From sequence record PV763039.1: a stretch of 64,000 nt of DNA; one strand, written 5' to 3'. This DNA comes from Escherichia phage WPEC6. Shown here piece after piece: positions 42,599 to 43,347 of the stretch. The translations under genes and the position numbers were made by a program. A model generated the notes under the pieces. That model was not told where the DNA came from. It saw only the letters and a program-made list of their open reading frames with translations, and did no database searches. Position 1 is the first letter of the stretch; each line of letters begins with the position of its first letter.

Positions 42599-43081
42599 AT
42601 GTCACAAGAACAAGATAACACAATTCAAAAATATGCTCGACCAGAAGAAGTAGTTGAGATTCCGTTAGATGGAAACAGATCTGTTACTTTCCGTATTATG
42701 AAGTGGAGTCCATCTAAAGTGTTTGACAGGATTCCAGAATTAGGTAGTGTTCTGGTTGTTCCTATGACTATGTATAGCACAGCAACAATGTCCGCAGACG
42801 AAGACCTTGAGTCACGTATTGCTATGGCATTGATCCAACTTTTTGCAGGTTTGGAAGAAAAGAATTTAACTGTCTTTTTGCGTAAAATTTTAGATGAGGT
42901 TTATACTCAAGACGGTTATAACGTTGCAGAAAATTTTGATGAATTATTTATGGCTCACCCAGAACTAGTGTTAGATCTTACTGCTAAAGTTCTGGAGGTA
43001 AACTACGGCCCTTTTTTCAAACGAGGTTTCGGAAAACTGTTCACACAGCTTCAGGCGATGACGAGTTTAGCAGCAAATTAA
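42599..43081 (+). CDS. tail assembly chaperone (zero-frame product)
   Basis: ORF directly upstream of tape measure; RBS AGAGAGGAAA; contains slippery heptamer near its 3' end. Confidence 0.55.
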   Translation: MSQEQDNTIQKYARPEEVVEIPLDGNRSVTFRIMKWSPSKVFDRIPELGSVLVVPMTMYSTATMSADEDLESRIAMALIQLFAGLEEKNLTVFLRKILDEVYTQDGYNVAENFDELFMAHPELVLDLTAKVLEVNYGPFFKRGFGKLFTQLQAMTSLAAN

Positions 43082-43347
43082 CACCTGCGATTGAACATGC
43101 TATCGACATAGCAACGAAAACCCTTACTTTGAAGTGGTATGAGGTTATTCTTTGCAAAGTCGTTAAAGATACCTCGGAAACACTGAAAACATTGGATAAC
43201 TACGGTGTAGATTATCTTTTAAAACTATATGAGTATTTAACATACGAAGAGTATGTTGAAGCCATGTATGTTAAAGACACTTCAATAAAGAGAAAACATC
43301 AAAACCAGACAAATAAAATGTCAGATTTGTTTAAGAAACTTGTTTAA
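42599..43347 (+). CDS. tail assembly chaperone, predicted -1 frameshift fusion product (about 249 aa)
   Basis: joins 42599-43017 to the -1 frame 43018-43347 (track ORF 43129-43347 is its 3' part). Confidence 0.45.
43012..43018 (+). other. slippery heptamer T_TTT_TTC (predicted -1 frameshift site)
   Basis: zero-frame codons CCT TTT TTC; the -1 frame is open from 42988 through 43347. Confidence 0.5.

Follow-up and report, generated by a model that had tools for sequence, protein, structure and literature searches.

A programmed -1 ribosomal frameshift of the lambda G/GT type very probably operates in the tail assembly chaperone gene of Escherichia phage WPEC6, the proposed shift site being the heptamer T_TTT_TTC at positions 43012-43018 of the plus strand, with TTT as the P-site codon and TTC as the A-site codon. 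The DNA analysed, hereafter called the window, was a 64,000-nt stretch of this phage (PV763039.1) with a GC content of 39%, and the G/GT criteria used were those of Xu, Hendrix and Duda 2004. The lambda system and the conserved frameshift of long-tailed dsDNA phages, with which the site was compared, are taken from Levin 1993 and from Xu, Hendrix and Duda 2004, 2013 and 2014, in the form in which passages of PMC5009743 summarise them. A pair of the G/GT type just upstream of the tape measure gene had been proposed in a preliminary description of the sequence, and this proposal was supported by the gene order, by the assignment of the short chaperone (G) to the Phage_TAC_15 family, by 58 out of 58 homologous loci, by the coding constraint acting in the -1 frame and by the comparison with the FelixO1-like phage Moogle.

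The window belongs to a phAPEC8-like phage of the genus Phapecoctavirus (Stephanstirmvirinae). When compared at the DNA level, the region 42074-43400 was 100% identical to that of Escherichia phage Mt1B1_P17, at least 99% identical to those of about 60 phAPEC8-like phages and 60-80% identical to those of 71 further records, phi92 among them. The order found on the plus strand was sheath, tube, G, T segment and tape measure. In particular, the tail sheath gene (40654-42027, phrog_205) was followed by the tail tube gene (42074-42553), which matched Pfam KPP10_Orf10 and phrog_280 and is named tail tube in related records, and by the G gene (42599-43081), which starts with ATG and gives by standard translation a protein of 160 aa and 18.2 kDa. 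G matched the Pfam family PF21822 (Phage_TAC_15) with 84.3 bits and E=1.3e-23, the gathering cut-off being 22, and the match spanned residues 29-143 of G and positions 3-125 of the 127-position profile. Moreover, G matched phrog_3840, which is labelled 'tail assembly chaperone', with E=2.8e-55. Further downstream, the RefSeq annotation places a 72-aa ORF at 43129-43347 as a 'hypothetical protein' (phrog_16039, function unknown), and the tape measure gene occupies 43368-45356, with a TTG start, a GAGGA Shine-Dalgarno sequence at 43356-43360 and a match to phrog_16051 over 1-662 (E=0).

At the site itself, the window reads ...AAC TAC GGC CCT TTT TTC AAA CGA... in the zero frame, with the codons CCT at 43010-43012, TTT at 43013-43015 and TTC at 43016-43018, and T_TTT_TTC thus lies in the X_XXY_YYZ register within the ORF 42599-43081, as the preliminary description had stated. 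Its reading of the -1 frame as open from 42988 to the stop ending at 43347 was likewise confirmed by translation, which gave SSGGKLRPFFQTRFRK...KKLV, including ...RPFFQTRFRK..., up to the TAA at 43345-43347. This frame and the 3′ end of G overlap by 94 nt, and the earliest ATG, GTG or TTG in it is the TTG at 43129, with none across 42988-43128. The T segment appended by the shift would extend over 43018-43347 on the plus strand (109 codons plus the stop, QTRFRK...KKLV), with C43018 being read twice, and the T-segment peptides TVHTASGDDEFSSK and LTPAIEHAIDIATK are encoded upstream of the annotated TTG. The predicted products are G and a fused GT protein of 249 aa and 28.8 kDa. Overlapping the main heptamer there is a secondary one, C_CCT_TTT (43009-43015), likewise in register, which would lead to the same product. 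Since slipping at either heptamer, as well as transcriptional slippage, would yield the same junction GPFFQ, a junction peptide cannot tell these three routes apart.

Heptamers of the XXXYYYZ form in register were common in the window, where a total of 73 were counted, including three TTTTTTC, in a crude set of 71 ORFs comprising 17,168 codons at 39% GC. As such heptamers are frequent by chance, the heptamer by itself is not significant, and on this background its combination with an open -1 frame might be taken as a coincidence without function. However, no other heptamer of the window precedes a long -1 frame: the frame following the T_TTT_TTC site runs for 109 codons, while the next longest one after another heptamer runs for 31, and the median -1 frame run over all positions was six codons. 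It is the pairing of the heptamer with a long -1 frame that is the exceptional feature, and it is unique in the window. Furthermore, the arrangement was kept in every relative examined, down to a protein identity of about 25% and over GC contents of 37-62%, and the chance of a functionless coincidence is consequently next to nil.

The -1 frame could, on the other hand, harbour an independent gene, in which case the 72-aa protein would be started at TTG 43129 or at another internal codon. Such is the picture given by the RefSeq and GenBank records, which show a separate 'hypothetical protein', and by gene finders, which call proteins of 64-85 aa in the relatives; moreover, TTG starts are in use in the phage. 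The preliminary description had considered the TTG of the downstream 72-aa ORF a poor start, and TTG 43129 was indeed the first start codon available; however, a TTG is not disqualifying by itself, given that the tape measure gene begins with TTG behind its GAGGA Shine-Dalgarno sequence. What disqualifies TTG 43129 is that no Shine-Dalgarno sequence was present upstream of it and that it falls within a conserved motif, as it encodes the Leu of SL.W, two codons ahead of an invariant Trp.

Additional evidence against a separate start came from the region upstream of this TTG. In the alignment of the fused products, conservation of the T domain set in about 16 codons ahead of the TTG of the window. 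For the 16 codons from the G stop to the TTG, the pairwise differences across 14 Stephanstirmvirinae-like alleles amounted to 0.375, 0.277 and 0.649 at -1-frame positions 1, 2 and 3, respectively, compared with 0.389, 0.268 and 0.600 at codon positions 1, 2 and 3 of the annotated 72-aa ORF. This stretch, although annotated as intergenic, is hence coding in the -1 frame, because its position pattern resembles that of the annotated ORF. In 15 out of 39 alleles, the -1 frame contained no ATG, GTG or TTG ahead of the conserved Trp, while in the alleles with start codons the positions of these varied, most of them without a Shine-Dalgarno sequence. Moreover, the -1-frame Arg-Phe just after the heptamer (R143, F144) was invariant across both subfamilies (Stephanstirmvirinae and Vequintavirinae), and in rV5 the -1 frame still gives RFR despite a change of GFG to GLG in the zero frame. 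The 72-aa ORF is most likely a shortened call of the T segment and not a separate gene, the sequence comparisons leaving a separate start very improbable.

The fused GT protein and the T segment were also used as queries against a collection of 5.8 billion proteins, where none of the 41 G-type and 18 T-type homologs retrieved was a natural fusion of G and T in one ORF, a result that weighs against the frameshift; the matches were separate proteins of about 160 aa (G) and 64-85 aa (T). Among solved structures, no match similar to G or T was obtained. The AlphaFold2 model of the T segment was mostly helical, with modest confidence (pLDDT 71), and the Foldseek comparison of the T segment with viral models returned one unnamed match of 73 aa (E=0.0075, 40% identity), which was uninformative on function.

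Conservation of the site was evaluated in homologous loci taken from annotated phage records and from IMG/VR viral contigs. A total of 58 loci were considered, representing 39 distinct 127-nt contexts (alleles) from Phapecoctavirus, Justusliebigvirus, other Stephanstirmvirinae, six Vequintavirinae lineages (the rV5, Hena1, Mydo, SSE121, CR8 and ChuuTotoro types) and unclassified contigs. Within these loci, the identity of G to 10 reference chaperones went down to about 25%, and the GC content ranged from 40 to 62%. An in-register T-run heptamer was found at one aligned codon in all 58 of them, being T_TTT_TTC in 55 and T_TTT_TTG (within C_CCT_TTT_TTG) in three GC-rich loci. Likewise, the T part was in the -1 frame relative to G in 58 out of 58 loci, uninterrupted from the slip site, and the -1 frame reached 155-278 nt beyond the G stop to end just before the tape measure gene; in locus L049, it ran 206 nt past the G stop, to the contig end. 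The codon preceding the T-run was Pro CCT, Cys TGT or Ser AGT depending on the lineage, always with its final T.

The constraint was also visible at synonymous sites. The third-position entropy at the three codons of the heptamer was 0, 0 and 0.39 bits, compared with a mean of 1.54 bits at 13-45 nt upstream, and the stretch of lowered entropy extended from about position -15 to +6. Such third-position invariance is not explained by codon usage, since the structural genes of the window have TTT and TTC in a ratio of 96:71 and use CCT for 95 out of 176 Pro codons. As for the overlapping C_CCT_TTT, it was found in the Stephanstirmvirinae-like alleles and was considered as the main conserved site, but it was rejected as such, given that the Vequintavirinae carry TGT or AGT at that codon. 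As a separate observation, part of the register conservation follows of necessity from the Phe-Phe residues, which are themselves conserved.

More distant phages were informative on how the shift would be produced. Aeromonas phage TS9 kept AGT TTT TTC, while in Pseudaeromonas phage KLEP7 the sole heptamer was C_CCT_TTT, in register and with a T5 run. In Rheinheimera phage Barba1A, there was no T-run, and the G_GGA_AAG of lambda occupied an in-register position some codons further on; the -1 frame of this phage continued for 224 nt past the stop and begins with VFRIPSGDSG, resembling the RFRKPSGD of rV5. Selection for ribosomal slippage would predict just such an exchange of one valid heptamer for another with the register always kept. 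Moreover, no case of stops in the -1 frame or of a missing slippery heptamer was detected in the 58 loci, KLEP7, TS9, Barba1A and Moogle.

The same comparisons bear on whether RNA polymerase, instead of the ribosome, could be slipping. On a run of T6, the addition of one U by the polymerase in a fraction of the transcripts would give, by normal translation, CCU UUU UUU CAA (PFFQ) and hence the same GT; in favour of this are the presence of a homopolymer run and a predicted product identical in sequence to that of the frameshift. However, the run was exactly T6 in 39 out of 39 alleles, TS9 and Moogle and only T5 in KLEP7, while descriptions of efficient transcriptional slippage generally concern runs of about 9 or longer. 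Barba1A, for its part, lacks any long homopolymer at the site and carries in register a slippery heptamer that is classical for ribosomes, and the synonymous-site conservation reaches upstream to a Shine-Dalgarno-like motif, as a signal read by the ribosome would lead one to expect. Slippage of the polymerase is on these grounds considered very unlikely, and a ribosomal shift remains the preferred reading of the site.

Regarding the elements that could stimulate this ribosomal shift, a downstream pseudoknot or hairpin had been suggested beforehand, and this suggestion was not supported, as no downstream structure was found by fold z-scores, by a hairpin rule or by an Rfam scan. In the window, the 92 nt after the heptamer folded no better than shuffled sequences (z = -0.54), and in the 39 alleles the mean z was +0.26 (50 nt) and +0.10 (75 nt), with values below -2 in none of the 39 at 50 nt and in one of the 39 at 75 nt. 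Under the permissive rule of PMC4066793 (Sharma et al.), no hairpin was found in the window, and those found in 17 out of 36 relatives were long, loose and inconsistent, with no common type. The Rfam scan gave nothing relevant. As no downstream stimulatory structure was found, the frameshift efficiency may be low.

Upstream of the heptamer, a Shine-Dalgarno-like GGAGG was found at 42994-42998 on the plus strand, inside CTG GAG GTA, with 13 nt separating it from the heptamer. At 13-14 nt upstream, GGAGG, GAGG or GGAG was present in 28 out of 39 alleles, which are phylogenetically related and do not count as independent observations, compared with 5.6% of the window positions, and Moogle likewise has GGAGG 13 nt upstream. 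The Glu codon at this place was GAG in the window and most relatives, while the phage prefers GAA over GAG by 198:62, and the third-position entropy of this codon was 0.72 bits against the mean of 1.54. The motifs GAGG, GGAG, AGGA, GGNGG and AGGKG located 6-17 nt upstream have been experimentally proven to be stimulatory (PMC4066793). In the terms of PMC4066793, the GGAGG of the window would count as a 'conserved SD', its conservation being confounded with that of the Leu-Glu-Val/Ala codons and with shared ancestry; GGAAG or CTCGAAGTA instead of GGAGG would retain Leu-Glu-Val. GGAGG is the sole candidate stimulator and may act by pairing with 16S rRNA.

Extending this to the whole clade of contractile-tailed phages comprising the FelixO1-like, rV5-like and phi92/phAPEC8-like phages and their relatives, a two-part module can be tentatively put forward, with somewhat less than even chances of being correct. 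It would consist of GGAGG or GAGG exactly 13-14 nt before U_UUU_UUC, embedded in L-E-(V/A)-N-(Y/F)-x-x-F-F, and would lack any RNA structure downstream. If such a module were true, the C-terminal peptide motif of the chaperone would be conserved partly as the code of a recoding signal, and Barba1A and KLEP7 would have lost the T-run and re-invented a different heptamer nearby.

According to the mechanism proposed, most ribosomes would translate 42599-43081 and release the 160-aa G, whereas a minority would pause with the P-site tRNA-Phe paired to UUU and the A-site tRNA-Phe to UUC. The two tRNAs would then slip one base back on U_UUU_UUC (43012-43018), and reading would resume at C43018 in the -1 frame and end with the stop codon 43345-43347, yielding the 249-aa GT of 28.8 kDa (...NYGPFF|QTRFRK...). 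E. coli has only one tRNA-Phe, with anticodon GAA, for the codons UUU and UUC, and both slipped tRNAs would for that reason re-pair with UUU. The overlapping C_CCU_UUU may contribute too, giving an identical protein. The slip would proceed with no downstream RNA structure, and the GGAGG 13 nt upstream may stimulate it by pairing with 16S rRNA. Such a site agrees with the known shift propensities in E. coli, where U_UU.C ranks second among the tetramers in its tendency to shift, where UUN codons in the A site and heptamers made up entirely of pyrimidines are favourable, and where U_UU.U_UU.C shifts at rates above 0.1% even when no stimulator is present, this motif being under-represented among the genes of the bacterium (PMC4066793).

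As for the role of the two products, G and the G part of GT would, by analogy with lambda, coat the tape measure protein, while the T part would recruit the tube protein; the low slip rate would set a high G:GT ratio. Hence, the tape measure protein is the presumed partner of the G domain, and the tube protein that of the T domain. The sequences themselves show the anatomy of the site, the family of G, the deep conservation of heptamer, register and -1 frame, the coding constraint acting in that frame and the lack of a start of its own for the T part, whereas we infer the occurrence and efficiency of the slip, the role of GGAGG and the binding partners.

Frameshifts of this type are known in tailed phages, and the site in the window is new and unannotated. 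In open-access papers and preprints, no frameshift named for Phapecoctavirus, phi92 or rV5 was found, and none of the 14 related records with feature tables examined presented a frameshift join. Moreover, the feature names in many more records were only 'tail assembly chaperone' and 'hypothetical protein'. The practical value of the finding lies in annotation, as a G/GT pair would take the place of a chaperone followed by a 'hypothetical protein' of 64-85 aa. The locus is common to at least 135 deposited genomes when searched as DNA and to several hundred when searched as protein, including the therapy-relevant phAPEC8, phi92 and rV5 groups. Furthermore, the comparative set offers a natural example of a recoding site kept over deep divergence and a wide GC range, of one slippery heptamer replaced by another, and of an upstream Shine-Dalgarno-like element that may be the only stimulator. 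The understanding of tail assembly chaperones is left unchanged by the frameshift site.

Finally, the site was compared with known systems. Pairs of the G/GT type (Xu, Hendrix and Duda 2004) are defined as supplying both proteins at a fixed ratio, each of them being needed for tail assembly. In lambda, according to passages of PMC5009743, both forms attach to the tape measure protein through their G part, while the T part of GT attaches to the major tail subunit, with a G:GT ratio of about 30:1 and neither form in the virion. The window shares with lambda the overlapping ORF pair directly upstream of the tape measure gene and the expectation of a minor long form. In contrast to lambda, the heptamer is U_UUU_UUC instead of G_GGA_AAG, the slip site lies 23 codons before the G stop, a Shine-Dalgarno-like motif is placed 13 nt upstream, G falls in another family (Phage_TAC_15), and the phage is contractile-tailed, with a genome of 150 kb.

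The dnaX gene of E. coli presents a -1 frameshift at A_AAA_AAG, flanked upstream by a Shine-Dalgarno-like element and downstream by a hairpin. Stimulated frameshifts of the dnaX/IS911 type would have a Shine-Dalgarno-like sequence 6-17 nt before the motif and a stable hairpin or pseudoknot beginning 4-10 nt after it. In both sites, a Shine-Dalgarno-like sequence precedes a homopolymeric heptamer by a spacing that falls in the stimulatory range of PMC4066793. Unlike dnaX, the window has no downstream hairpin, its heptamer is another one and the shifted product is longer, that of dnaX being shorter.

Closer to the window, a conserved -1 frameshift at GTTTTT was proposed in December 2025 (PMC12846349) for the chaperone of Vandenendeviridae (Pakpunavirus Adele) and Andersonviridae, whose virion modules, as passages of that paper put it, are regarded by its authors as related to those of Vequintavirinae. 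The scope of that paper does not extend to Stephanstirmvirinae and Phapecoctavirus, and GTTTTT is inapplicable to the window, whose T-run follows a C (CCC TTTTTT C). Neither the Shine-Dalgarno-like element upstream nor the substitution of one heptamer by another appears in the passages of PMC12846349 concerned.

The FelixO1-like phage Moogle reads ...TTG GAG GCA AAC TTC GGA AGT TTT TTC..., followed by a -1 ORF extending 236 nt past the stop, and its site is homologous to that of the window, with T_TTT_TTC in register and GGAGG 13 nt upstream. The similarity is concentrated in the C-terminal 39 aa of G, which were 36% identical to the G of the window (pairwise E=1.7e-4), while the remainder of G and the T domain were beyond BLAST detection. 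In GenBank, the Moogle CDS is a join of two pieces, with the frameshift annotated in 2015, whereas the records of the 14 relatives of the window carry no such join.

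The 45-nt gap that separates the stop of the tube gene from the start of the chaperone gene contains, on the plus strand of the window, a terminator-like hairpin at 42559-42578 (AAAGGGCAGAAATGCCCTTT), with 8 pairs and then a T-rich tail (sequence after the hairpin: TTATCATT). A 'terminator' is also annotated at the corresponding region in phAPEC8-type records. As a candidate terminator, this hairpin could lower the expression of the chaperone and tape measure genes compared to that of the sheath and tube genes. Further downstream, the tape measure gene begins with a TTG at 43368 behind a GAGGA Shine-Dalgarno (within 43356-43370), and TTG starts are therefore genuinely used in this phage.

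Another heptamer in register, C_CCA_AAG (cccaaag), was located on the plus strand within the ORF at 1256-1765 of the window, 15 codons from its 3' end. This heptamer combined with the IS3 pseudoknot gave 54% frameshifting, the top value in the work of Sharma et al. on -1 frameshift motifs in E. coli (PMC4066793). The ORF aligns with positions 206-373 of the 458 in the profile of a DNA methyltransferase PHROG, in the middle of that profile, and the -1 frame after the heptamer has just 19 codons, ending 20 nt beyond the ORF stop. The heptamer is here probably a chance occurrence. The ORF upstream belongs to another family, so there is no sign of a split gene.

Regarding the database records of the relatives, phages named after Campylobacter, Acinetobacter (vB_AbaM_ABPW7) and Pseudomonas (PsgM04F) showed identities of 77-100% to E. 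coli Phapecoctavirus or Justusliebigvirus in the chaperone locus, and their host labels look doubtful. Furthermore, the RefSeq record of phi92 has a 'Hypothetical tRNA' annotated within the tail sheath coding sequence (locus positions 986-1078); no tRNA was detected by ARAGORN in the entire window, including the sheath gene homologous to that of phi92.

Among the homologous chaperone loci, Rheinheimera phage Barba1A harbours a 'putative DNA binding protein' gene on the minus strand (locus positions 2126-2764), between the T segment (the -1-frame extension of the chaperone) and the tape measure gene, and this insertion interrupts an adjacency that is otherwise universal. In the alleles of the type of Erwinia phage Hena1 (L009 and L037), the codon preceding the T-run of the slippery site forms a -1-frame ATG (GG ATG TTT TTT C), located 3 nt before the heptamer, and a GGAG lies 11 nt upstream of this ATG. 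For this lineage alone, it is conceivable that ribosomes initiate internally at the slip site, in the -1 frame. Finally, the original annotation of phage rV5 starts ORF50 (locus positions 1551-1919) at a CTG directly on the slippery site, which gives it a 109-nt overlap with ORF51. The presence of a long -1 frame had been noticed there, yet it was not read as a frameshift.
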